From assembly GCA_045658315.1 (NCBI GenBank), contig JAZOUV010000023.1, forward strand, positions 15,065-79,064: a stretch of 64,000 nucleotides of DNA, in the 5' to 3' direction. The position numbers and the translations under genes are program-made. The stretch is from Eubacteriales bacterium. GTDB lineage: Bacteria; Bacillota; Clostridia; Oscillospirales; CAG-272. Shown here one piece after another: positions 23,699 to 38,238 of this stretch. The notes under the pieces were generated by a model. It saw nothing but the letters and a program-made list of their open reading frames with translations. It did not search any database and was not told the origin of the DNA. Positions within the stretch are counted from its first letter, which is position 1, and each line of letters starts with the position of its first letter.

Positions 23699-26023
23699 AT
23701 GTTTGAGAACTTTAAGACATTCGAGTATGAATTGTCAGGAAGAAAGCTTGTAATTGAAACAGGCAAAATGGCAGGTCTTGCAAACGGCTCCTGCTTGGTT
23801 CGCTTTGGCGACACGGTTATTCTTGCGACCGCAACTGCAAGTGCAAAACCCAGAGACGGCATTGACTTTTTGCCCCTTTCTGTTGATTTTGAGGAAAGGC
23901 TTTATGCTGTGGGAAGAATCCCCGGCGGTTATCTTAAGAGAGAAGGCAAGCCCTCTGAAAAGGCTATTCTTACATCACGTGTTATTGACAGACCTATCAG
24001 ACCTTTGTTCCCTAAGGATTTGCGTAACGATGTTAACCTCAGCCTCACCGTGCTTTGCGTTGACAACGATAACAGCCCCGAGATTGCAGGCATGATTGGT
24101 GCATCTATCGCACTGTCCATTTCCGATATTCCGTGGAACGGTCCTATTGCAGGTGTGTTTGTTGGCTTGGTTGACGGACAGATTGTGCTTAATCCGACAG
24201 TTGAGCAGAGAGAAAAGAGCGACCTTGAGCTTACCGTTGCAGGCAGCCTTAACAAAGTTGTTATGATTGAAGCGGGAGCTAAGGAAGTTAGCGATGACGA
24301 TATGTTCAACGCAATTATGACAGCTCACGAAGAGATTAAGAATATTTGTAACTTTATCAATACTATTGTCGCAGAGGTAGGCAAACCCAAGTTTGATTAT
24401 CCTTCTTGCGAATTTGACCACGATATGTTTGACAAGGTATTTGATTTTTGCGAAAAGGACGTTATGTTCGCTCTTGATACAGACGACAAGAATGTTCGTG
24501 ATGAGAGAATGCAGCCCATTACAGACGCTATCGTTGAAAAGTTCAGCGAAGAATATCCCGAAATGCCCGACATTATCGGTGAGCTTATTTATAAGATTCA
24601 GAAGAAGATTGTTCGTCGTTGGCTCCTTGAAGACGGCAAACGTGTTGACGGCAGAAGAATGGATCAGATTAGACCCTTGGCTGCTGAAGTCGGCTTGTTC
24701 AACAGAACACACGGTAGCGGTATGTTCACTCGTGGACAGACTCAGGTTATGACGATTGCGACACTCGGACCGATAGGCGACGCTCAGATGCTTGACGGTA
24801 TTGATACCGAAGAAACAAAGAGATATATGCACCACTACAATATGCCCGGCTACTCTGTTGGTGAAGCTAAGTCTTCCAGAGGTCCCGGCAGACGTGAGAT
24901 AGGACACGGTGCTTTAGCTGAGCGTTCTCTTGTTCCCGTGCTTCCTCCCGTTGATGAATTCCCCTATGCCATCAGATGCGTATCCGAAGTTATCAGTTCA
25001 AACGGTTCAACCTCTCAGGCGTCCGTTTGTGGTTCAACTCTTGCTCTTATGGACGCAGGTGTTCCGATTAAGGCACCCGTTGCAGGTATTTCCTGTGGTC
25101 TTATTACCGAGGGTGAACGTTGGATGACTATGATTGATATTCAGGGTCTTGAAGACTTCTACGGCGATATGGACTTTAAGGTTGCAGGTACTCACAAGGG
25201 TATTACTTCAATTCAGATGGACCTTAAGATTGACGGTCTTACTCCGGAAATCATCAAGAATGCTCTTGAAGTTACTCACAAGGGAAGAGATTATATTATT
25301 GATGAGATTCTTCTCAAGGCTATTCCCGAATCAAGAGCTGACGTTTCCGAATATGCTCCCAAGATGCTTACAATGCATATTGACCCCGATAAGATTAGGG
25401 AAGTTATCGGTTCCGGCGGTAAGGTTATCCAAAAGATTGTTGCTGATACGGGTGCTAAAATTGATATCGAAGATGACGGCACAATTTATATTTCCGCAGT
25501 AAACAGAGACAGTGCTTATGCAGCTAAAGAGATAATCGATGGTATCGTATTTGAACCCGAGGTTGGTGCTATCTATACGGGTAAGGTTACAAGAGTTATT
25601 CCGATTGGTGCGTTCGTTGAGTTTGCTCCCGGCAAGGAAGGTCTCGTTCACATTAGTAAACTCGATTACAAGAGAGTTGAAAAGGTTGAAGACGTTTGCA
25701 ATGAGGGCGACGTGATTACCGTTAAGTTTATGGGAACTGACGAGAAGGGCAGACTTAACCTCTCCAGAAAAGATGCTATGCCCAAGCCCGAAGGCTATGA
25801 GGAAAGAGAAAGACGCCCTCAGAACAATAACAACAGACCTCGCAACAACGGCGGAGATAGGTATAGAGAAAATTCCAACAGACGTCCCTACAACAGAGAC
25901 GAATATAAGCCCGAAGCTTCAAAAGCTCCTGTAGAAGAAGCACCCAAGGTTGAAGAACCTAAGGTTGAAGCTCCTGCAGAAGCTGAAAGTAAAGGACTTT
26001 TCGGATTTTTCAAAAAGAAATAA
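23699..26023 (+). CDS. pnp: polyribonucleotide nucleotidyltransferase (PNPase) with extended C-terminal tail
   Basis: 774 aa. Two RNase PH domains, then KH (GSGGKVIQKIVADTGAKIDI) and S1 (GKVTRVIPIGAFVEFAPGKEGLVHIS), plus a ~70-aa low-complexity tail. Confidence 0.97.
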   Translation: MFENFKTFEYELSGRKLVIETGKMAGLANGSCLVRFGDTVILATATASAKPRDGIDFLPLSVDFEERLYAVGRIPGGYLKREGKPSEKAILTSRVIDRPIRPLFPKDLRNDVNLSLTVLCVDNDNSPEIAGMIGASIALSISDIPWNGPIAGVFVGLVDGQIVLNPTVEQREKSDLELTVAGSLNKVVMIEAGAKEVSDDDMFNAIMTAHEEIKNICNFINTIVAEVGKPKFDYPSCEFDHDMFDKVFDFCEKDVMFALDTDDKNVRDERMQPITDAIVEKFSEEYPEMPDIIGELIYKIQKKIVRRWLLEDGKRVDGRRMDQIRPLAAEVGLFNRTHGSGMFTRGQTQVMTIATLGPIGDAQMLDGIDTEETKRYMHHYNMPGYSVGEAKSSRGPGRREIGHGALAERSLVPVLPPVDEFPYAIRCVSEVISSNGSTSQASVCGSTLALMDAGVPIKAPVAGISCGLITEGERWMTMIDIQGLEDFYGDMDFKVAGTHKGITSIQMDLKIDGLTPEIIKNALEVTHKGRDYIIDEILLKAIPESRADVSEYAPKMLTMHIDPDKIREVIGSGGKVIQKIVADTGAKIDIEDDGTIYISAVNRDSAYAAKEIIDGIVFEPEVGAIYTGKVTRVIPIGAFVEFAPGKEGLVHISKLDYKRVEKVEDVCNEGDVITVKFMGTDEKGRLNLSRKDAMPKPEGYEERERRPQNNNNRPRNNGGDRYRENSNRRPYNRDEYKPEASKAPVEEAPKVEEPKVEAPAEAESKGLFGFFKKK

Positions 26024-26290: not shown

Positions 26291-29200
26291 ATGAAACGTT
26301 TTTTTGGCTTTTTTAGCATAACATTGATAATGATGTCTGTAATAGTGCTGTCGATGTTTGCTTTTGGTGTATTGGCGGACACCGGTACAATTGATGAGAA
26401 TGTCATATACATCAAAAATAATCCCTCGGTGGGCGGAACGGGAAAAACTGCGACTGATCCGCTTTATCCTATCCAATATCCCGCAAGGGACTTAGAGTCG
26501 AATGGTATCACTCAAAATAACTACAAAAATACGGCATTATATCAAGCTGTAGAAAAACTGTCGGATACAGGCGGAACGGTTGTTATTTGCGGTGATTATA
26601 CACTTACGAATGATAATGCCAGAGGCAGAGATGATAACTTTGAGTATTGTCTTCCCATAACTAAAAAGGCTGTACGTATAACAAGTTATTACAGGGATAA
26701 GAATAACAAGGTTGAGGATTACAGAAATAACGCGAAGTTGATTCTGCAAGGTAATTTTCATATTATTTTGAACGGACCTACCGTTTGGGAAAATTTGAAC
26801 ATTAATACAAGTCTTTCCGCCGACAGAGCAATCTGTTGCAATGGAAACAAGACCGTATTCGGTGAAGGTTTGACCTGTACAACAGAAAATAATCGTTATC
26901 TTTCCATAGCAGGCGGCAAGAGGTATGAGGGTTTTACCTCTGATGTTGATGTTACCGTAAAAAGCGGAACGTTTTATAAATTGATAGGCACAACATGGAC
27001 AAATCCGGATCCCAACAATAGCGGAGTTGAAATAGACTGCATAGGTGATGTAAATCTTCAAATAGAGGGTGGGCAAATTACGTATGTTTATGGAAACTCA
27101 CACAATACAGTTCCTAATTCTTTTCATTGGGGTGATGTTAATATATCGATAACCGGAGGAAAAATTTCCGGCGGATATATAGCGTGTACCGGGAACGGCG
27201 GTTTTAAGACTGAGTCTTGTAAGGTTAATGTAAAGATTTCCGGCAGTACGTTTGATTCCGGTATAGTAATAAAAAGCCGAGAAACGTGGGATGGAGAAGA
27301 GATAACCGGTTTTGCATCTAATAATATAAACATTGATTTAACTGATGCCGTTGGAGTGCCTGATGGTAGACTAAACACAATTGTAACAAATCTTCCCGAG
27401 GGTGCTAAGGTAAAATATCCTACTGACTGGATAACCGGTGTCATAATGACAAACGCACCTTCTGCGGACACGTTTGTATTCTGCGGAGACAAGGCTACCG
27501 CTGAGGGAGCAGTTTTAAATGTAACGTATCAGAATCCGATATCCGGGAATTACATATATCAGACCGTTGAATACAGCAAGAATAATTCTGCATTCAGGGC
27601 TGTATACGACGAATCAAAGAATGGGAATGTTGATATAGACTATTATTTCGGTGATAAGAAATATCACACCGGCAAAATAGACGTAATAGCAGTGCCCGAT
27701 GTTGATATTGACGGCGTGCGGATAAGAACCGATACTAAGGAACAGCAGATGTACGGTTGGGGAAATTATACGTCGGGAGATTATTCCCAAATAGAAGTGA
27801 AGGAATGTGGAGTTATAGCGATTCCGTCCGACATGCTTGTTACGGGTGAGCCTTTTGACCATACGAATACATACAAAATGTATGACGCTGTAGCAGATAA
27901 AAATATATATAGCGGCTCAAAAATATCTTTTGGTGCACTTGTATTTGGTGATGAAGCTATAAGAGAGAACAATTATAACAGAGATTACAGCTTGAGAGCT
28001 TATGTGAAAATAAGCTACAACGGCAAAGATTATTACAGATATTCGGATATAATCCAAAGAAGCTTTTATGATGTTGCTAAAATGGCAATAGAGGGAGATA
28101 AGGAGACTGCAGAGACAAAAACTGCATTGAATACAAATCTTATTTCGGTATATGACAATTACGATGAAACCACTAAGTATAACTCCGAGGGAGCAACGGC
28201 GGCAAGACAAAAAGTAGTTAGTTATATGGAATCTATGATGAATATCGAGTGGACTCCTAATAAGACATTTATTTTATACAATAACCCCAACCACGCAAAA
28301 GGAGCTGCCTACAGTATTGGACCCGGTTCGACCGAAATGTACGCGATATTTATTGCAGGTAAAACATATCGTGGTATCCCCTACGTGAACAATACTCTGG
28401 CACAGCTTGAGAACTTTAAGGATAGAATAGCGGAAAAAGAAAATTCTATTATTAAAAACAATTTGGTTCACACTTGGTCGATTAGTAGTGATTATATCTT
28501 TACCCTTTGGCTTTCTGATGCAGAGGAACTAGACGGAGTGGAAAATGCGAGGAATTTCCCCGGAAACGACTGTTATTATTCCGTGTTGTTTGCATGGAAC
28601 ACTGTTTTGAACAACCGAGCACAGATAAGTCTTATGAACTCGTTAGAAAACAGTCTTGGCGGTAAAAACGGTGTAATTGCCGTGGGTAATTACGATAACA
28701 GTAATTATTATGATAATAGTACGTATGGTATTAGCACGAAGCAGACGGTACAAGCGAATGGCGAACAGACGATGGCGAATGCTTACGCTAAGTTGCAACC
28801 CGGAGATGCTACGGTTTATGCTTATACCGATAGTAACGGTAATATTCAACGTCATGTCCGTATGATTCACAAAGCCCCGACTGTTAAATATACTACTGCA
28901 GGTAAAATTGACCTTGCGAACAGTGAAGTAGAATGTATAGACCAAGCCGGTGGCGGAGATACAAGATATATTTGGAATAATAGCATTTCTTCAATACAGG
29001 TAAAAACAAGAACTTTTAAGGAAATGTATACTGAAGGATCGCTTCCGATAACGATTCCCGAGCTTGCGACAGGAAACTCAGATGCACAGTTTACCTACGC
29101 TGCGAAAATGAATCTTGAAGAGGATCTTCCACAAGGCAAGATTTCCGGTGTAATAAAGTCAAACAGACAGATAATATCCGTGAAAGCGGTTATAAGCCAA

Positions 29201-29410
29201 AATGGTTCAGTAGTAAAAGAGGTAAAAGAAACTCTTTCGACGCAAGGATCAATGGTTCATATAGATCTGTATAACTTGCGTACTCTTGACCTCAGCGGAT
29301 TAAATTTGACACCGGGCGGCAACTACGAATTTGACCTTTATGCATGTGTATCAGGCATGAACGGAGCAGAAGTGCAACTCGTAGACAGCTACGAATTTAC
29401 TGCTGCATAA
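26291..29410 (+). CDS. large secreted multidomain protein: signal peptide, beta-helix-like repeat domain, papain-fold (NlpC/P60-like) candidate domain
   Basis: 1039 aa. Signal peptide MKRFFGFFSITLIMMSVIVLSMFAFGVLA. N-terminal ~300 aa are paralogous to the ORF at 60821-62146. GNDCYYS and PGD...RHVRMIH motifs occur near aa 760-860. Confidence 0.7.
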   Translation: MKRFFGFFSITLIMMSVIVLSMFAFGVLADTGTIDENVIYIKNNPSVGGTGKTATDPLYPIQYPARDLESNGITQNNYKNTALYQAVEKLSDTGGTVVICGDYTLTNDNARGRDDNFEYCLPITKKAVRITSYYRDKNNKVEDYRNNAKLILQGNFHIILNGPTVWENLNINTSLSADRAICCNGNKTVFGEGLTCTTENNRYLSIAGGKRYEGFTSDVDVTVKSGTFYKLIGTTWTNPDPNNSGVEIDCIGDVNLQIEGGQITYVYGNSHNTVPNSFHWGDVNISITGGKISGGYIACTGNGGFKTESCKVNVKISGSTFDSGIVIKSRETWDGEEITGFASNNINIDLTDAVGVPDGRLNTIVTNLPEGAKVKYPTDWITGVIMTNAPSADTFVFCGDKATAEGAVLNVTYQNPISGNYIYQTVEYSKNNSAFRAVYDESKNGNVDIDYYFGDKKYHTGKIDVIAVPDVDIDGVRIRTDTKEQQMYGWGNYTSGDYSQIEVKECGVIAIPSDMLVTGEPFDHTNTYKMYDAVADKNIYSGSKISFGALVFGDEAIRENNYNRDYSLRAYVKISYNGKDYYRYSDIIQRSFYDVAKMAIEGDKETAETKTALNTNLISVYDNYDETTKYNSEGATAARQKVVSYMESMMNIEWTPNKTFILYNNPNHAKGAAYSIGPGSTEMYAIFIAGKTYRGIPYVNNTLAQLENFKDRIAEKENSIIKNNLVHTWSISSDYIFTLWLSDAEELDGVENARNFPGNDCYYSVLFAWNTVLNNRAQISLMNSLENSLGGKNGVIAVGNYDNSNYYDNSTYGISTKQTVQANGEQTMANAYAKLQPGDATVYAYTDSNGNIQRHVRMIHKAPTVKYTTAGKIDLANSEVECIDQAGGGDTRYIWNNSISSIQVKTRTFKEMYTEGSLPITIPELATGNSDAQFTYAAKMNLEEDLPQGKISGVIKSNRQIISVKAVISQNGSVVKEVKETLSTQGSMVHIDLYNLRTLDLSGLNLTPGGNYEFDLYACVSGMNGAEVQLVDSYEFTAA

Positions 29411-29673: not shown

Positions 29674-31197
29674 ATGAATCCAAAGCTGAAAGAAAAAACA
29701 AAAGAATCACTGACCGCCGTTTTGCCTATAACAGCGATAGTATTGCTGTTAAGCATATTTCTTGTGCCGATGGAACTGGGACATATAGTGTTGTTTCTGA
29801 CGGGAGCATTGATGCTCATAATGGGAATGGGACTTTTCCAGTTGGGTGCAGAAATGGCAATGACTCCGCTTGGAGAGGGTATAGGTGTTCAGGTGTCAAA
29901 ATCGAAAAGGGTATTGACAGTACTCCTTCTCGGTTTTATAATGGGCTTTATTATTACAATTTCAGAGCCTGACCTACAGGTTCTGGCGGAGCAAGTGCCC
30001 GGTGTTCCCAATAACACTCTGATAATTGCCGTAGCCGTAGGCGTAGGATTATTTCTTGCCTTGGCTATTGTCAGAATTAGAGACCAGATTAGCCTTTCTA
30101 TGATGCTTTTGGTGTTCTATGCGGCATTGTTGGCGTTGTCGTTCTTCGTTCCAAAGAGCTTCGTTGCCGTTGCCTTTGACTCGGGCGGTGTAACAACCGG
30201 TCCTATGACTGTGCCATTTATTATGGCTATGGGTGTCGGCTTGGCATCTGTTCGTAGCGACAAAAACGCAGACAGCGACAGCTTCGGTCTTGTAGCATTG
30301 TCAAGTGTTGGTCCTATTCTTGCTGTAATGGTGTTGGGGTGCTTTTTTAAGCCTGATGCGGCTGAATATACGCTGACCGATATACAAAGTGTAACAACTA
30401 CAAGAGATGTTGCAAACGTGTTTATGCGTGGAATACCAAAATTTGCCGAAGAGGTATTTGTTTCTTTGCTTCCCATAGTAGCGGTATTTATTATATTCCA
30501 GCTTGTTTGTAAAAGATATCACGGAAAGCAGATTGCGAAGATTTTGATTGGTATAGGTTATACTTATATAGGACTTGTATTATTTTTGTGCGGAGTAAAC
30601 CTCGGTTTTGCCCCCGTGGGTGCTTATCTTGGGGAACAGCTTGCACTTATTAATTATAATTGGGCGATTATTCCTATAGGTATGCTGATAGGTTATTATA
30701 TAGTTAAGGCAGAGCCGGCGATACAGATATTAAATCATCAGGTTGAGAGCGTAACCGACGGTGCTATATCCGTAAAGGCTATGAATACCTGTATGTCTGT
30801 GGGTGTATCTGTGTCCGTAGGCTTGGCGATGTTGAGAGTAATGACGGGGATATCGATAATGTGGATAGTGATTCCCGGATATGTGATAGCTTTATCACTT
30901 GCGTTTGTTGTGCCGAAACTTTTTGTTGGTATAGCCTTTGACTCGGGCGGTGTTGCCAGTGGCCCTATGACTTCAACGTTTTTGTTGCCGTTAAGTATAG
31001 GTGCTTGCTCGGCGGTGGGCGGAAATCTTATGACAGATGCTTTTGGTGTTGTGGCATTGGTTGCATTGACTCCACTTATAGCGATACAGATAATGGGGCT
31101 TGTATATAGGCTCAAGACCGAGAAACTGGAAAAGAATATCGAGCAGATCGTGGTTTCCGCTGACAGCGACGATATTATTGACTTGGAGGAGGATTGA
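29674..31197 (+). CDS. DUF1538-family integral membrane protein (internally duplicated)
   Basis: 507 aa and polytopic. Two homologous halves each carry AFDSGGV(T/A)(T/S)GPMT (aa ~167 and ~422). Confidence 0.8.
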   Translation: MNPKLKEKTKESLTAVLPITAIVLLLSIFLVPMELGHIVLFLTGALMLIMGMGLFQLGAEMAMTPLGEGIGVQVSKSKRVLTVLLLGFIMGFIITISEPDLQVLAEQVPGVPNNTLIIAVAVGVGLFLALAIVRIRDQISLSMMLLVFYAALLALSFFVPKSFVAVAFDSGGVTTGPMTVPFIMAMGVGLASVRSDKNADSDSFGLVALSSVGPILAVMVLGCFFKPDAAEYTLTDIQSVTTTRDVANVFMRGIPKFAEEVFVSLLPIVAVFIIFQLVCKRYHGKQIAKILIGIGYTYIGLVLFLCGVNLGFAPVGAYLGEQLALINYNWAIIPIGMLIGYYIVKAEPAIQILNHQVESVTDGAISVKAMNTCMSVGVSVSVGLAMLRVMTGISIMWIVIPGYVIALSLAFVVPKLFVGIAFDSGGVASGPMTSTFLLPLSIGACSAVGGNLMTDAFGVVALVALTPLIAIQIMGLVYRLKTEKLEKNIEQIVVSADSDDIIDLEED

Positions 31198-31198
31198 A

Positions 31199-31879
31199 AT
31201 GGAAAAGGAAAAAAGCCCGATTATCAGGACTTTAGTGTTGATAACGACAGAAAAATCTGCTAATAGAGCAGTTGAAATGTTTAAGACAGACGGAATTCAT
31301 ATAAAATACAGTGTGCTTGCGGAAGGAACGGCATCAAGCGAGATACTCGATATGCTGGGACTTGGAAGTACGGAGAAGAGAATATTAATAGCTCTGATGC
31401 CAAAGATAAAGGCGGATATAACGGTTGAGAAGCTTCATAATGAACTGGCAATGAGCAAGGCAGACAGTGGAATAGCATTTACCTTGCCCGTAACCGGTGC
31501 AAGCGGAGCTTTAATGCAGATGATGGCAGAGGGAGAAAGAACAGAAGAAGAGAAGAAAGAAGAGGAAAAAACTATGGGCAATAGCCATACAATGATAACG
31601 GCGATATTGAATAGAGGCTTCAGCAGCGAGGTAATGAAAGTTGCAAAGGAAGCGGGAGCACGTGGTGGCACGGTAATACACAGCCGTCAGATGATTGACG
31701 AAGATACTATGGGCTTCTGGGGTATGAGTATGCAGGAAGAAAAGGAAATGTTGCTTATAATAACCGAAATAGAAAAGAAGCTTACAATAATGAAAGCTAT
31801 AACCGAACAGTTTGGTATGCATAGCGAGGCAAAAGGCATAGTTGTTTCGACACCTATTGACACTGTAATGGGCATATAA
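31199..31879 (+). CDS. tandem P-II-like signalling protein
   Basis: 226 aa from ATG 31199 (GGAGGAGG SD upstream; the TGA stop of the upstream gene ends 1 nt before the ATG). Two ~100-aa halves of P-II/ferredoxin-like character are joined by a Glu/Lys linker. The track start at 31100 overlaps the DUF1538 gene and is rejected. Confidence 0.65.
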   Translation: MEKEKSPIIRTLVLITTEKSANRAVEMFKTDGIHIKYSVLAEGTASSEILDMLGLGSTEKRILIALMPKIKADITVEKLHNELAMSKADSGIAFTLPVTGASGALMQMMAEGERTEEEKKEEEKTMGNSHTMITAILNRGFSSEVMKVAKEAGARGGTVIHSRQMIDEDTMGFWGMSMQEEKEMLLIITEIEKKLTIMKAITEQFGMHSEAKGIVVSTPIDTVMGI

Positions 31880-32118
31880 AACATAAAACAAAGCTGTCGT
31901 TTTTATTTAAATGAAAATCGGCAGTTTTCTGTTTTTATATGGGAACAAAAACATTATTTCTACAAACAAAACCTCACCTCTATATACTGTACAAGCAGTT
32001 AAGACGAAGAGAATAATAAAAAGGGTGTAAATTTTTAAGATACATTTGTCTAAAAAATTATATCAAATAGAACAGAGATATTATTTTAAAAGAATTCTAA
32101 ATTCTTTCTTTTTTTCAT

Positions 32119-32189
32119 ACTTTCTTGGTGCCAAGAAAGTATTGCAAAGAAGGCACAAAGGGAAGGAGCGTTTCGATTCGCTCCTTCCC
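32119..32189. repeat. two strong hairpins/palindromes preceding the tandem repeats
   Basis: ACTTTCTTGG-tg-CCAAGAAAGT at 32119-32140. GGGAAGGAGCG-tttcgatt-CGCTCCTTCCC at 32160-32189, an 11-bp GC-rich stem with no T-run. Confidence 0.85.
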
Positions 32190-32221
32190 CTTGACCCCTT
32201 CCTCACAAACGACCAAAGGTG

Positions 32222-32600
32222 TTCCCCCTTTGGAATCCTCCTTGGTTTGTGCGTAGTTATAATATATTACTTAAAGGTGAAGTGCTATTTATGGATAGTA
32301 TTTTTAAAAATACTATCTAAGGCATTCCCCTTTGGAATCCTCCTTGGTTTGTACGTAGTTATTACATATTACTTAAAGGTGAAGTGCTATTTATAGATAG
32401 TATTTTTTAAAATACTATCTAAGGCATTCCCCTTTGGAATCCTCCTTGGTATGTGCATAGTTATAATGACAACATAGAGGTGAAATTCTATTTATAGATA
32501 GGTATTTTTTTAAAATACTATCTAAGATATTCCCTCTTTGGAATCCTCCTTGGTATGTGATTAGTTATGATAATTTCTTAGAGGTAAAATGCATGTATTA
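32222..32600. repeat. tandem repeat, about 3.7 units of ~102 bp
   Basis: Units start at 32222, 32325, 32427 and 32530. The TTTGGAATCCTCCTTGG block recurs at 32229, 32331, 32433 and 32537 (periods 102, 102, 104). R1/R2 are ~93% identical, and R3 and R4 are progressively diverged. AT palindromes lie at 32294-32317, 32395-32420 and 32496-32523. Confidence 0.9.
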
Positions 32601-32623
32601 AGCAAGAAAATATGTAAAAACTA

Positions 32624-32652
32624 TTGACGGAAAAGTATATAAAGTATATAAT
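32624..32652 (+). promoter_or_regulatory. promoter of the potABCD operon (long leader)
   Basis: TTGACG (32624-32629), a 17-nt spacer, then TATAAT (32647-32652). Predicts a ~385-nt 5' UTR before potA. Confidence 0.65.
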
Positions 32653-33042
32653 ATATTATTGTACACGAAAAATAAAATATATAGACGATTTTTGCATCTG
32701 TGCCAACATTTTTGTCAAAAGCAAAGGTTTGACAAAATCTATCATCACCTTTTTTCTACTAACTTACGGGCACGTGTAGATTATATCCGTAAAAAAGGCA
32801 AGATGTACATATCAGGGCAGTTCTTAACAAGAGCCGTTTTTAAGGTTAGTCTGACTTTAAATTGAGAAACCGAACGCTGCAGCCGTGTTTAAGTTTGCGG
32901 AAGTTTTATTAAATAACCGCAAGGCGTATATACGGTTGTAACAAACTCTTTGCGGGGGCGTTGGGTTAGCCCGATATGGGGTTCGCGCAGAGCTTAACTA
33001 TGAAGCTGTACGCGGTCTTTACCGCAAAGGGGGATGCAAAAA

Positions 33043-34164
33043 ATGAACCAGAAAAATATTATTGAACTAAAGAACATCACCGTGGAGTTTGACGGCGAAA
33101 AGGTGCTTGACAATCTCAACTTGTCTATAAGAGACAAGGAGTTTGTTACACTTTTGGGGCAGTCGGGTTGCGGAAAAACAACCACCCTCAGAATAATTGC
33201 CGGTTTCATTCAGCCTCAGTCGGGAGATGTTTTTTTTGACGGTCAGTCGGAGCTTGGCGTTCCGCCTTACAAAAGACCTGTTAATACCGTCTTCCAAAGA
33301 TACGCTTTGTTCCCGAACTATAACGTATATGACAATATAGCTTTCGGACTCAGAGTCAGCAAGGTTCCCGAAAAGGAAATTGAGCAGAAGGTAAAGGATA
33401 TGCTTAAGCTTGTTAATCTGCAAGGCTTTGAAAAGAGAAGTGTAGCAAGATTGTCGGGCGGTCAGCAACAGAGAGTTGCAATTGCAAGAGCCGTTATAAA
33501 CGAGCCGAAGGTGTTGCTTCTTGACGAGCCTTTGGCGGCTTTGGATTTGAAACTTCGCAAAGATATGCAGAACGAGCTTAAGAATATTCAGAGAGAGCTC
33601 GGAATAACTTTTATATACGTAACGCATGACCAGGAAGAAGCTTTGTCTTTGTCCGATACAGTTGTCGTTATGCACGAGGGCAAGATTCAGCAGATAGGCA
33701 GTCCTATCGATATTTATAACGAGCCTGAAAATGCATTTGTTGCCGATTTTATTGGTGAATCGAATATTATTGACGGCGTTATGAAGGAGGACTACCGTGT
33801 ATCTCTCGTCGGCAAGACATTTGAATGTCTTGACAAAGGCTTTAAAAAGAATGAGCCTGTTGACGTAGTAATAAGACCTGAAGACGTTGATATCGTTCCC
33901 GTAGAAAAGGGAATGCTTGTGGGTGAAGTAACCTCCGTTCTTTTCAGAGGCGTTCATTTTGAAATAATTATAGACGTTGAGGGCTTTAAGTGGATGATAC
34001 AGACAACCGACGAAAGTCGAGTTGGCGACAAGGTTGGGCTTTATATTGAGCCTGACGCTATCCACGTTATGAAGAAGTCCAAGTATTCGGGACAGTATGG
34101 CGACTACAGTACGTACAGCGACGAAATGGACAGAATGAGCGATGTCGAAGAGGTAGAAGAATGA
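33043..34164 (+). CDS. potA: spermidine/putrescine ABC transporter ATP-binding protein
   Basis: Walker [10 protein letters not shown], signature [14 protein letters not shown], Walker B LLLDEP, and a C-terminal TOBE-like domain. Start at ATG 33043, 8 nt after AAGGGGGA. ATG 33034 has no spacing to the SD. Confidence 0.9.
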
Positions 34165-34982
34165 AGAAACGCGGTTGGGGATCTGTAGCGTTAAACGCAC
34201 CCTATACCGTTTGGTCTGTAATATTTATAGTTGTCCCCCTTTTTATTGTGGGATATTACGCATTTACGGACAAAAGCGGTGCGTTTACATTTGATAATAT
34301 AATAGAATTAAAGGAATACGGCGACATATTCTTTATATCGGTGTGGTATTCCGTTTTAGCCACCGTAATATGTTTGCTTATAAGCTATCCCTTTGCATAT
34401 TTTCTGAGCAGACAGAGCGAACAGTCAAGAAGATTGCAGATGATGCTCGTTATGCTTCCTATGTGGATGAACCTTCTCATCAGAACTTATTCTTGGATGA
34501 ATATTCTTGAAAAGAACGGTATAATCAATAATCTTCTTACCGGTATCGGTCTTGAGCCTATAAAGATGATAGGTACTCCGGGGGCGGTTATATTCGGTAT
34601 GGTGTACAACTATCTGCCATATATGATATTACCAATATATACTGTAATGAGCAAGATTGAGCCTTCGCTGCTCGAGGCGGCGGAAGACCTCGGTTGTAAC
34701 GGCTTCAACAAGATGCGTCGCGTAATAATGCCTTTGAGTTTACCCGGTGTTATCTCGGGAATTACAATGGTGTTTGTTCCCTCGGTTAGTACGTTCTACA
34801 TCAGCCAAAAGCTTGGCGACGGTAAAATTATGCTCGTCGGCGACGCTATCGAAAGACAGATGCAGGCGGCATACAACTACAATTTAGGAGCTTCGATTAG
34901 CCTTGTATTGATGATAATGATTATAATCAGTATGGCTATAATGAACAAGTTCTCCGACGAAGAGGGAGGGCTTGTTATATGA
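34161..34982 (+). CDS. potB: spermidine/putrescine ABC transporter permease
   Basis: 273 aa and polytopic. EAA-loop region [27 protein letters not shown]. 4-nt overlap with potA. Confidence 0.9.
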
Positions 34983-35791
34983 AAACTTTCGGAAAGATAT
35001 TTAACACCTGCGTATACGTTTTGCTTTATGCCCCCTTGCTTATAATGGTGTTTTTTAGCTTTAACGAGTCGAAAAGTACCTCCGTATTTACAGGCTTTTC
35101 GCTGAAATGGTATCAAGAGCTTTTTTCAAAGAGTGATATAATTGAAGCTTTGTCGAATACGCTTGTATTGGCGGTGCTGTCATCCCTTATTGCAACCGTA
35201 CTCGGAACGGTGGCGGCGGTTGGTCTCTACAAAATGAGAAGCAAGTTCCTCTACAATACTATGAATACCGTAACGAACCTGCCCATGATGAACCCCGATA
35301 TTGTAACGGGTGTATCATTAATGCTTTTGTTCGTATTCGCGGGCAGAATGCTTGGCTTTGCCGAATATCTGAGCTTTTGGACACTTTTGATAGCTCATAT
35401 TACTTTTAACTTGCCCTACGTTATACTGAACGTTTTGCCAAAGCTCCGACAGACTGACGTTAGTCTTTACGAGGCGGCAATGGACTTGGGGTGTACACCC
35501 ATTAAAGCCTTCTTTAAGGTAATAATGCCTTCAATAATGCCCGGTGTTGTTTCGGGGGCATTGATGGCGTTTACCCTGTCGCTTGACGACTTTGTGATAA
35601 GTTATTATACCACAGGTGCCGATTTCCAGACATTGCCCCTTAAGATATTTGCAATGACGAAGAAGACGGTTAAGCCTGATATGTATGCGTTATCATCGCT
35701 GATTTTCGTAACGATACTCGTTTTGCTTATCGTTATTAACATTCTTCAAGAGAAATCCGAAAGAAAACTGAAGGGAGAAACTAAGAAATAA
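34979..35791 (+). CDS. potC: spermidine/putrescine ABC transporter permease
   Basis: 270 aa. EAA loop LYEAAMDLGCTPIKAFFKVIMPSIMPG. 4-nt overlap with potB. Confidence 0.9.
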   Translation: MKTFGKIFNTCVYVLLYAPLLIMVFFSFNESKSTSVFTGFSLKWYQELFSKSDIIEALSNTLVLAVLSSLIATVLGTVAAVGLYKMRSKFLYNTMNTVTNLPMMNPDIVTGVSLMLLFVFAGRMLGFAEYLSFWTLLIAHITFNLPYVILNVLPKLRQTDVSLYEAAMDLGCTPIKAFFKVIMPSIMPGVVSGALMAFTLSLDDFVISYYTTGADFQTLPLKIFAMTKKTVKPDMYALSSLIFVTILVLLIVINILQEKSERKLKGETKK

Positions 35792-36903
35792 TGAAAAGAT
35801 ATACAGCTATTTTTCTTGCATTTATAATGACTGTGTCGATGTTGAGCCTTGCTTCTTGCGGGGCGGCAAACGATACGGTCGAGAATCTTGAATCAACATA
35901 TTCGCAGGAATATGCGGGTACGACAATAAACGTATTTAACTGGGGAGAATATATTTCCGACGGAAGCGAAGGCTCTCTTGATGTAAACAAGGCTTTTGAA
36001 AACGCTACAGGTATTAGGGTTAACTACAGTAACTACGATAGCAACGAAGCTATGTACGCAAAAATGAAGAGTGAGGCGGTATCCTATGATATTGTTATCC
36101 CTTCCGACTATATGATTGAAAGACTTATCAATGAGAATATGCTCCAAAAAATTGACTTTTCAAAGATAAGCAACTATAAGAACATTTCCGATGAATACAA
36201 GGGTCTGTATTTCGATGAGAATGATGAATATTCGGTGCCTTACAGTGTCGGTATGGTAGGTCTTATATACAATACGACAATGGTAGAGGGAACACCGGAC
36301 AGTTGGAGCATTATGTGGGACAGCAAGTATAAGGACAATATACTTACATTCAACAACCCCAGAGATGCTTTTGCTATTTCTCAGTTTTTGCTTGGTATAG
36401 ACCTTAATACTACCGATAAGGCTGAATGGGATAAGGCGGCAAATAAGCTGAAAGAGCAGAACAAGGTTTTGCAGGGTAAAGTTATGGACCAGGTGTTTAA
36501 TAAGATGCAGGGCGGTAATGCCGCTATTGCACCCTATTACGCAGGCGATTTTCTTACGATGCAGAGCATAAACGAGGACTTGGCATTTGTTTATCCCAAA
36601 GAGGGAACAAACATATTTGTTGACTCTGTTTGTATTCCTGCAAACGCAAAGAACTATGAGGCAGCTTTGATGTATATAAACTTTTTGCTTGAGCCTGAGG
36701 TTGCATTGGCAAATGCAGAATATATATGCTATGCGACACCAAATACCGCAGTTCTCAACAACGAGGATTATTCGTTGAAGGATAACGGGATTCTTTATCC
36801 CGCAGAAGAAAATAAACCGAAAACGCAGTACTTCCATGACCTTGATGCAGATATCCGTTCATACTACGAAAAGCTCTGGGAAGATATATTGAGAGAATCA
36901 TAA
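35791..36903 (+). CDS. potD: spermidine/putrescine-binding lipoprotein
   Basis: 370 aa. Lipobox LSLASCG. INVFNWGEYI and PSDYMIERL motifs are typical of PotD/PotF binding proteins. Confidence 0.9.
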   Translation: MKRYTAIFLAFIMTVSMLSLASCGAANDTVENLESTYSQEYAGTTINVFNWGEYISDGSEGSLDVNKAFENATGIRVNYSNYDSNEAMYAKMKSEAVSYDIVIPSDYMIERLINENMLQKIDFSKISNYKNISDEYKGLYFDENDEYSVPYSVGMVGLIYNTTMVEGTPDSWSIMWDSKYKDNILTFNNPRDAFAISQFLLGIDLNTTDKAEWDKAANKLKEQNKVLQGKVMDQVFNKMQGGNAAIAPYYAGDFLTMQSINEDLAFVYPKEGTNIFVDSVCIPANAKNYEAALMYINFLLEPEVALANAEYICYATPNTAVLNNEDYSLKDNGILYPAEENKPKTQYFHDLDADIRSYYEKLWEDILRES

Positions 36904-38147: not shown

Positions 38148-38238
38148 GGAGAAGTACTCAAGTTGGTGAAGAGGCGCCCCTGCTAAGGGTGTAGGTCGGG
38201 TAACCGGCGCGAGAGTTCAAATCTCTCCTTCTCCGCCA
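38148..38238 (+). tRNA. tRNA-Ser (anticodon GCU), CCA encoded
   Basis: Manual cloverleaf. Acceptor GGAGAAG/CTTCTCC, anticodon stem CGCCC/GGGTG with loop CU-GCU-AA, long variable arm (type II), T arm GAGAG-TTCAAAT-CTCTC, discriminator G, then CCA. Confidence 0.9.

Follow-up and report, generated by a model that had tools for sequence, protein, structure and literature searches.

A tandem array upstream of potABCD-like genes as the probable outer module of a composite intergenic repeat in uncultured Clostridia

In pneumococcus, the BOX repeat joins boxA and boxC ends to a variable tandem array of boxB, is predicted to form stem-loops, and differs between strains (PMC3049150). The SPRITE repeat carries a long GC-rich duplex and then a U-rich tract and is longer than ordinary Rho-independent terminators, and BIMEs are intergenic mosaics of inverted palindromic units and linkers (PMC3049150). 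The small RNAs LhrC1-5 of Listeria monocytogenes each have a LisR-dependent promoter and a terminator, and their three UCCC motifs are spread over two loops and one single-stranded segment (PMC4132741). Here, we describe four tandem units of ~102 bp in a 64,000-nucleotide stretch of DNA (the window) from a Eubacteriales bacterium (contig JAZOUV010000023.1), where they lie directly upstream of the promoter of potABCD-like ABC transporter genes. We think it probable that the array arose when the outer module of a lineage-specific, fast-evolving composite intergenic repeat was amplified in tandem, and that this repeat has no dedicated role in the control of pot. We class the repeat as a new family among the composite interspersed repeats, a known kind, and assign it to none of BOX, SPRITE, and BIME. 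In the sequences compared, its insertion upstream of pot is limited to a single narrow lineage of uncultured Clostridia. Small repeats have been little studied in these bacteria, and this family was previously undescribed.

The full element would be a long imperfect palindrome, in which tandem units, a small hairpin, and the hairpins HP2 and HP1 lead to a core of ~105 bp, followed by HP1', HP2', small hairpin', and units in inverted order. Like BOX, it is a composite intergenic repeat of fixed modules plus a variable-number tandem module, its presence and copy number vary between related genomes, and its arms form stable predicted stem-loops supported by covariation. The tandem module is found four times in the window (102 bp), two to three times per arm at the corresponding locus of one relative (L038, ~155 bp), once in another (L039), and not at all at an unrelated locus (L052). 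Unlike BOX, the units here are 102-155 bp long, a long palindrome surrounds an asymmetric core, and two loci are known as opposed to more than 100 BOX copies per genome; no sequence likeness to BOX was noticed, and a comparison with BOX models was not part of the analysis. The resemblance to SPRITE lies in HP2 and its tail, which are called terminator-like on the strand that reads inward, toward the core. Here, however, two or three hairpins stand in series, two arms converge, the loop is conserved, and arms of the L type (the window arm is of the R type) have no U-tract. As in BIMEs and REPINs, inverted palindromic units are separated by linkers in intergenic DNA. REP units of enterobacteria and pseudomonads are ~35 bp long, have a conserved GTAG, and are tied to RAYT transposases, whereas arms here are 130-400 bp and neither a RAYT gene nor the GTAG motif was found. 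Finally, the array shares with LhrC side-by-side similar units of ~100 nucleotides (nt) with C/U-rich blocks complementary to Shine-Dalgarno (SD) regions, but the units lack a promoter, a terminator, or a loop-presented UCCC of their own, and the C-rich core is not conserved.

Insertion and makeup of the element

Comparison loci were fetched around close PotA homologues, which came from uncultured Clostridia in metagenome-assembled genomes annotated as Oscillospiraceae, Ruminococcaceae, or Acutalibacteraceae. Four relatives (L042 and L045 to L047; PotA 91-93%) have the gene order of the window without the element, and in these the upstream-gene match stops 58-90 bp before the promoter match begins. 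In the window this gap measures about 700 bp, and thus the array and the two hairpins belong to one inserted segment of ~650 bp (31950-32592). Homology to the element-free relatives, in which the pot promoter comes directly after the upstream terminator, resumes at 32585-32607, and from about 32594 onward the window carries the ancestral promoter-upstream sequence that is common to repeat-free relatives. Three other relatives with different upstream genes (L040, L043, and L044) are also without any unit. At the pot locus, the element is limited to the window, L038, L039, and L041, which make up the PotA-98% clade, and every member of the clade has a different form of it. L038 has two inverted arms around ~3130, L039 has a single unit and no hairpins, and the contig of L041 begins within the element, an assembly break that the repeat explains. 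All four have one junction with the promoter-upstream sequence (...GAGGTAAAATGCATGTATTAAGC in the window, corresponding to ...TAGGCAATAAAATGTTGGTATTAAGC in L038), which points to one ancestral insertion followed by rearrangement. The family evolves fast by amplification, inversion, and arm loss, and its stems are maintained by compensatory change.

The initial annotation, made from the window sequence alone, placed two strong hairpins just upstream of the array and did not connect them with it. Both hairpins are real and strong, with 11-bp stems, but they belong with the array to one composite element that also occurs at another locus. From right to left, the window reads units, small hairpin, GC hairpin HP2, hairpin HP1, and core (Table 1), and alignment of the window arm with both L038 arms gives the fixed order box, small hairpin, linker CGTTT..GGGG, HP2, linker CAAAGAAGGCRC, and HP1. 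A degenerate copy of the small hairpin (AAGG..CCTT) stands at the start of every unit. Long inverted arms are present in L038 and L052, and the window keeps the right arm only; apart from a unit remnant, the left arm, including its hairpins, is deleted. The window core has counterparts at 826-943 and 1307-1425 in L052 and, as the reverse complement, at 3018-3129 in L038, and its invariant blocks include CAGAGATATT and TTTCTTTTT. The R-type HP1 is identical in L038 arm A and L052 arm B, and in the L-type HP1 (GTTACTTTCTTT..AAAGAAAGTAAC) pairing is kept through a G-C to T-A change. The core and ~55 bp around the R-type HP1 hardly vary among the window, L052, and L038; in the first two of these, the HP1 stretch is identical.

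The orientation of the element relative to pot is opposite in the window and L038. The window arm is 79% identical over 346 bp to L038 arm A, which faces away from pot, and units of L038 also face another gene. The outermost inverted units of L038 (2741-2811 and 3389-3459) are 96% complementary over 71 nt, compared with 77-82% for the inner hairpin parts, which suggests recent gene conversion or recombination between the arms. The L038 gene beside the element encodes a 543-amino-acid (aa) protein that matched no family; its N terminus, read from the DNA, is signal-peptide-like, and there is no sign that it is a transposase.

A second locus was reached through a false open reading frame (ORF). 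The initial annotation doubted an ORF drawn through R1 and R2, and indeed the 116-aa frame (32046-32396) is closed by a single change, to TAG in R2 where R1 has TGG. A protein search with its translation returned one match, P0121, itself a false ORF, on contig L052; thus, the repeat explains false ORFs from gene callers at both places. At this different locus, a PEPCK-like gene fragment (identity read from the translated gene end) is followed by two complete elements in tandem with a period of 471, each consisting of an arm, the ~105-bp core, and an inverted arm. The L052 elements have neither 102-bp units nor the palindrome.

The four tandem units of the array agree with both the sequence and Tandem Repeats Finder, which reported one array (32225-32592; period 102, 3.6 copies, 87% matches, score 508). 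An 18-mer box, CTTTGGAATCCTCCTTGG, is identical in all four units against 0.08 expected. R1 and R2 are 94% identical (given as ~93% in the initial annotation), R1 and R3 86%, and R2 and R3 89%. R4 had been called diverged, and it is 84-86% identical to the other units over its 63 bp, but it is also truncated at about 32592, is matched by the nhmmer unit model only at positions 2-63, and has no palindrome. The palindromes proposed to end R1 to R3 hold for R1 and R2, the only places in the window that match the 24-bp AT palindrome with up to 3 mismatches; that of R3 is looser. Neither box nor palindrome recurs elsewhere in the window. The symmetry of the palindrome is kept by a double change, from GATAGTA..TACTATC in the window to GATAATA..TATTATC in L038. 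On the minus strand, SD-like boxes have no start codon at a workable distance, and an ATG CCT TAG that lies 13 nt after GGAGG is not kept in L038.

Two smaller observations concern the units. The unit junction ...ACTATCTAAGGCA (window 32412-32424, and also 32310-32322 and 32516-32526) has TATCTAAGG in common with L042 2590-2600 (GTTGTATCTAAGGATAAAAAG), and GTTGTATCTAAGGATAAAAAG is ancestral L042 sequence directly upstream of the pot promoter. Captured flank sequence might account for some of the palindrome-bearing portion of the unit, or the likeness to L042 might be due to chance. Upstream of the solo unit in L039, positions 1-200 and 300-545 hold two further repeat structures, one with two tandem ~95-bp units that each contain a GC hairpin (CCCCCGCTGACGCGGGGG) and the other a long inverted repeat (GAGGAGGGAGGTGTCACGCGAAGCGTGACGGAGGGAG ... 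CCTCCCTCCTC). Intergenic regions such as that of L039 appear to be rich in repeat families. A second repeat common to the flanks of L052 and L039 was considered and not confirmed.

Table 1. Features of the repeat and its surroundings, in window coordinates
Feature	Position	Strand	Remarks
DUF1538 gene	29674-31197	+	upstream of element
P-II-like gene	31196-31879	+	227 aa; upstream of element, downstream of DUF1538 gene
Left-arm unit remnant, opposite orientation	31950-32008	-	73%, E 1e-4 to L038 2833-2890, a unit of L038 arm A (blastn)
Asymmetric ~105-bp core	32010-32117	+	ends in TTTCTTTTTTTCA
Hairpin HP1, R type	32118-32141	.	11-bp stem, TACTTTCTTGG-TG-CCAAGAAAGTA
Linker CAAAGAAGGCAC, HP1 to HP2	32145-32156	+	nearly invariant across 6 arms; minus strand is the U-rich tail after HP2
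Hairpin HP2	32160-32189	.	11-bp G-rich/C-rich stem; loop here TTTCGATT, conserved GTTnCGATTC
Small hairpin CCAAAGG-loop-CCTTTGG	32213-32233	.	3' half is the start of R1; conserved in 5 of 6 arms
Unit R1	32222-32324	+	18-mer box, GAGGTG-type box, AT palindrome 32294-32317
Unit R2	32325-32426	+	palindrome 32396-32419
Unit R3	32427-32529	+	looser palindrome 32496-32523
Unit R4	32530-32592	+	truncated, without palindrome; right end of insertion
pot promoter TTGACG-17-TATAAT	32624-32652	+	11/12 consensus; outside element, marks ancestral sequence
potABCD-like ABC transporter genes	33043-36903		downstream of ~390-nt leader

Folding and covariation of the arms

For the hairpin region of the window (32104-32250), the predicted folding energy is -70.6 kcal/mol on the minus strand (z = -8.0) and -55.2 kcal/mol on the plus strand (z = -6.2). 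Folds of the arms span -51 to -71 kcal/mol, and z lies between -4.7 and -8.0 for every arm. A terminator-like call on the minus strand (32193-32156) spans HP2 and takes the linker as its tail. Covariation was measured on an alignment of the inward-reading strands of six arms, which correspond to the minus strand of the window, and 88.9% of the cells were paired. Changes on both sides were found in 14 of the 35 pairs; shuffled alignments averaged 6.2, none of 500 shuffles reached 14, and slid controls gave at most 6. In the HP2 helix, which is longer on the alignment than the annotated 11-bp stem, 10 of 13 pairs had changes on both sides. These figures come from six related sequences and are indicative rather than proof, and they do not distinguish hairpins in RNA from hairpins in DNA. 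Conservation across the six arms is seen in the linkers and in the HP2 loop GTTnCGATTC, whereas stem sequences are almost wholly different and yet paired. Conservation of the loop, the linker, and the HP1 flanks suggests sequence-specific constraint, and the element may be recognized by a protein or RNA partner. Were the conserved loop and linker indeed recognition sites, either for a mobilizing enzyme or for an RNA-binding protein, the family would be of greater interest. The HP2 loop resembles the T-arm sequence of tRNA (GTTCGATTC). An origin of HP2 from tRNA was rejected, as ARAGORN found only a tRNA-Ser at 38148-38238 in the window and nothing in L038, L039, L040, L042, or L045.

Origin of the repeat and alternative readings

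One such element entered the genome of the ancestor of the narrow clade, downstream of the terminator of the DUF1538/P-II-like operon and upstream of the pot promoter. Comparison of the loci shows three later changes: tandem amplification of a module that starts at the small-hairpin/box sequence, reversal of the element relative to pot, and deletion of one arm in the window genome. The short repeat at the head of each unit may have allowed amplification through slippage or unequal recombination, and recombination between the inverted arms may have caused the reversal. The hairpins would be kept by selection on pairing. Read toward the core, they resemble intrinsic terminators, and the element may block transcription that enters from either side. 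We consider the element probably selfish or neutral DNA of the BOX/SPRITE/BIME kind with incidental terminator-like hairpins, and nothing indicates that it controls pot.

Several observations weigh against a dispersed selfish repeat. MITEs have terminal inverted repeats together with a target-site duplication; no direct repeat that could be such a duplication was seen by eye at the element ends in the window or L052, and no transposase associated with the element was found. Evidence of dispersal is limited, as the distinct loci with the element number two (upstream of pot and L052), and nhmmer profiles of the arm and the unit found one copy in the 64-kb window and none beyond the pot site in ~80 kb of relatives' loci. 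The 18/19-mer box, which is less well conserved than HP1 plus linker, was matched singly 23 times among 185,579 species genomes and 14 times in JGI metagenomes, never beyond the length of the box; these matches are at chance level and give no sign of a high-copy family. High copy number is a defining trait of the BOX, SPRITE, and BIME families. Three of the box matches, in Clostridia, were inspected and lay in unrelated sequence. Termination is not uniform either, since the L-type HP2 of L052 has no adjacent U-tract (tail GTAAAGCGCC). Finally, a purely selfish reading does not account for the conserved HP2 loop and linker CAAAGAAGGCRC or for the conservation of ~55 bp around HP1.

The arms might instead be noncoding RNA genes that are read toward the core and end at the small-hairpin and HP2 terminators, with the units multiplying a purine-rich box (AAGGAGGAUUCC / AGGAAGAUUCC) that titrates an RNA-binding protein or ribosomes in the manner of a CsrB-type sponge. 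The strand data are consistent with such genes: the consensus fold is -30.98 kcal/mol on the inward strand and -17.58 kcal/mol on the other, compensatory pairs number 14 versus 8, free energy is lower on the inward, G-rich strand for every arm, and a 4-bp helix with G-U pairs can form on that strand only. Moreover, the arms converge on the core like convergent genes, and the terminator-like calls in the arms are all on the inward strand, at HP2 in the window and L052 B1 and at the small hairpin in the window and both L038 arms. Once composition is accounted for, however, mean z scores are alike on the two strands (about -6.2 and -5.5), and no conserved promoter was found upstream of the arms on either strand in the window, L038, or L052. 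GGA is present in most boxes on the inward strand, but its presentation in loops is not conserved, the box itself varies, and GGA is lost in one L052 arm. L052 does without units altogether, and L-type arms do without a U-tract. We conclude that RNA genes in the arms are unlikely, and the element looks more like a pair of convergent terminator-like cassettes than a gene pair. The fuller proposal that the arms are convergent structured noncoding RNA genes with a T-loop-like terminal loop, whose GGA/SD-like box is a sponge for a translational regulator or ribosomes and whose copy number is tuned by amplification, strikes us as quite improbable; we know of no CsrB-like system in Clostridia. The initial annotation had proposed a tandem family of small RNAs with C-rich seeds, as in LhrC or RoxS. 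Such RNAs, of the LhrC/RoxS/RsaE type, would be read from the plus strand and pair with SD regions. Every window unit does carry UCCCC and CCUCC blocks, and CAAAGGGGGA occurs twice in the window against 0.08 expected, once on the minus strand of R1 (32223-32232) and once on the plus strand at the potA ribosome-binding site (33025-33034), such that 10 nt of the R1 plus strand could pair with that site without a mismatch. A 9-nt version of the complementarity is found in R2 and R3 and is absent from L038 and L039 units, and we regard it as a side effect of both sequences being purine-rich and SD-like. A promoter-like TTTATA-17-TACTAT also overlaps each palindrome, below threshold in the window and at 9/12 in the L038 counterpart (TTTATA-17-TATTAT). 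Nonetheless, the plus strand of 32222-32610 has no promoter-like site that reaches 9/12, the sole in-array call being on the minus strand of R3, and the array has no plus-strand terminator-like site; the palindrome is followed by TAAGGCATTCC and no U-run. The CCTCC core is CTTCC in L038 and L039 and CTCCC or TTACCC in L052 (not conserved in its A arm), folds of single units are unremarkable (z of 0.0 to -2.0), with the C-rich block partly paired in minimum-energy folds, and the LhrC, RsaE, and RoxS models of Rfam are unmatched at the gathering score in the window and at E values of up to 10 in 31850-33100. LhrC copies, in contrast, each have a promoter and a terminator (PMC4132741). Small RNAs in the array are thus very unlikely, and the case cautions against taking anti-SD-like blocks as small RNA seeds without comparative data.

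A role for the array as DNA fares no better. Palindromes or boxes could be reiterated operators or UP-like sites acting on the pot promoter, as also suggested initially, in that the array stops about 30 bp upstream of the -35 hexamer and the 24-bp palindrome stays symmetric in the window and L038 despite the double change. The promoter and its ~390-nt leader, however, are conserved in 7 relatives while the sites are found in the PotA-98% clade only; units of L038 also point toward a different gene, the palindrome is missing from the L052 elements and from R4, the unit closest to the promoter, and palindrome and box are not repeated elsewhere in the window. We regard regulation through such sites as highly improbable. 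Equally hard to credit is an invertible switch, in which recombination between arms would flip the inner segment and redirect terminators or a hidden promoter. Opposite orientations in the window and L038 would fit a switch, as would the near-identity of the outermost L038 units relative to the inner parts, which suggests ongoing exchange, but the arms are nearly symmetrical such that a flip changes little, no recombinase gene is adjacent to the element in the window or L038, and the window, having lost one arm, can no longer invert. The last proposal of the initial annotation, a decaying satellite, came nearest, as identity decays from R1 and R2 to R4 and copy number varies. Indeed, variable copy number and lack of conservation, which the annotation had named as evidence against function, are seen among close relatives, and slightly more distant ones have no array. 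A plain neutral satellite that arose in place without a larger element is nevertheless already contradicted and has next to no probability: the units are contiguous with the hairpin/core module and covary with it in orientation, and that module recurs at another locus without units. The satellite is instead one module of the larger element.

Database searches and genomic neighborhood

The window had no Rfam match at the gathering score. At E values of up to 10, region 31850-33100 matched only chance-level eukaryotic microRNA models, and at E values of up to 1, the elements of L038 and L052 matched only chance-level microRNA and snRNA models, none recurring. A Clostridiales-2 match in the window was rejected (20.5 bits against a gathering score of 58.6), and it was not reproduced in L038 or L052. 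Four patterns, including the box, had zero matches in viral contigs, blastn found nothing in phage and plasmid records, and a 1,333-residue six-frame composite query returned nothing at E values of up to 10. Exact-protein look-ups with the window PotA and P-II-like proteins gave no record. A representative protein search with the translation of the false ORF 32046-32396 returned only P0122, on contig L053 (ENA ERZ26859072 ctg12479, 567905-579554), which was discarded as a chance match. L053 is 36% GC, has almost no ORFs, and carries at least five satellite arrays unrelated to the element (periods 41, 55/62/110, 126, and 162); it looks eukaryotic.

Upstream of the element, the DUF1538 and P-II-like genes form a pair that is syntenic in relatives. 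The P-II-like protein has a sub-threshold P-II match in its C-terminal half (21.1 bits against a cutoff of 25) and no NCBIfam match. Farther upstream, a 1,039-aa ORF (26291-29410, plus strand) lies between pnp (PNPase, 23699-26023) and the DUF1538 gene and matched neither Pfam nor NCBIfam. Downstream, the pot promoter was correctly placed by the initial annotation and is kept in every relative, with or without the element. The pot leader (32655-33042) had no Rfam match and is notable for long invariant blocks in 7 relatives (PotA 91-98%). The consensus structure of the leader has 93 pairs and an energy of -94 kcal/mol; compensatory changes are seen in 9 of the pairs, and in the last helix CTCTTTGCGG pairs with the SD region of potA (CCGCAAAGGGGG). 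As modeled, the leader resembles a riboswitch-type or translational leader of an undescribed kind that would serve the transporter.

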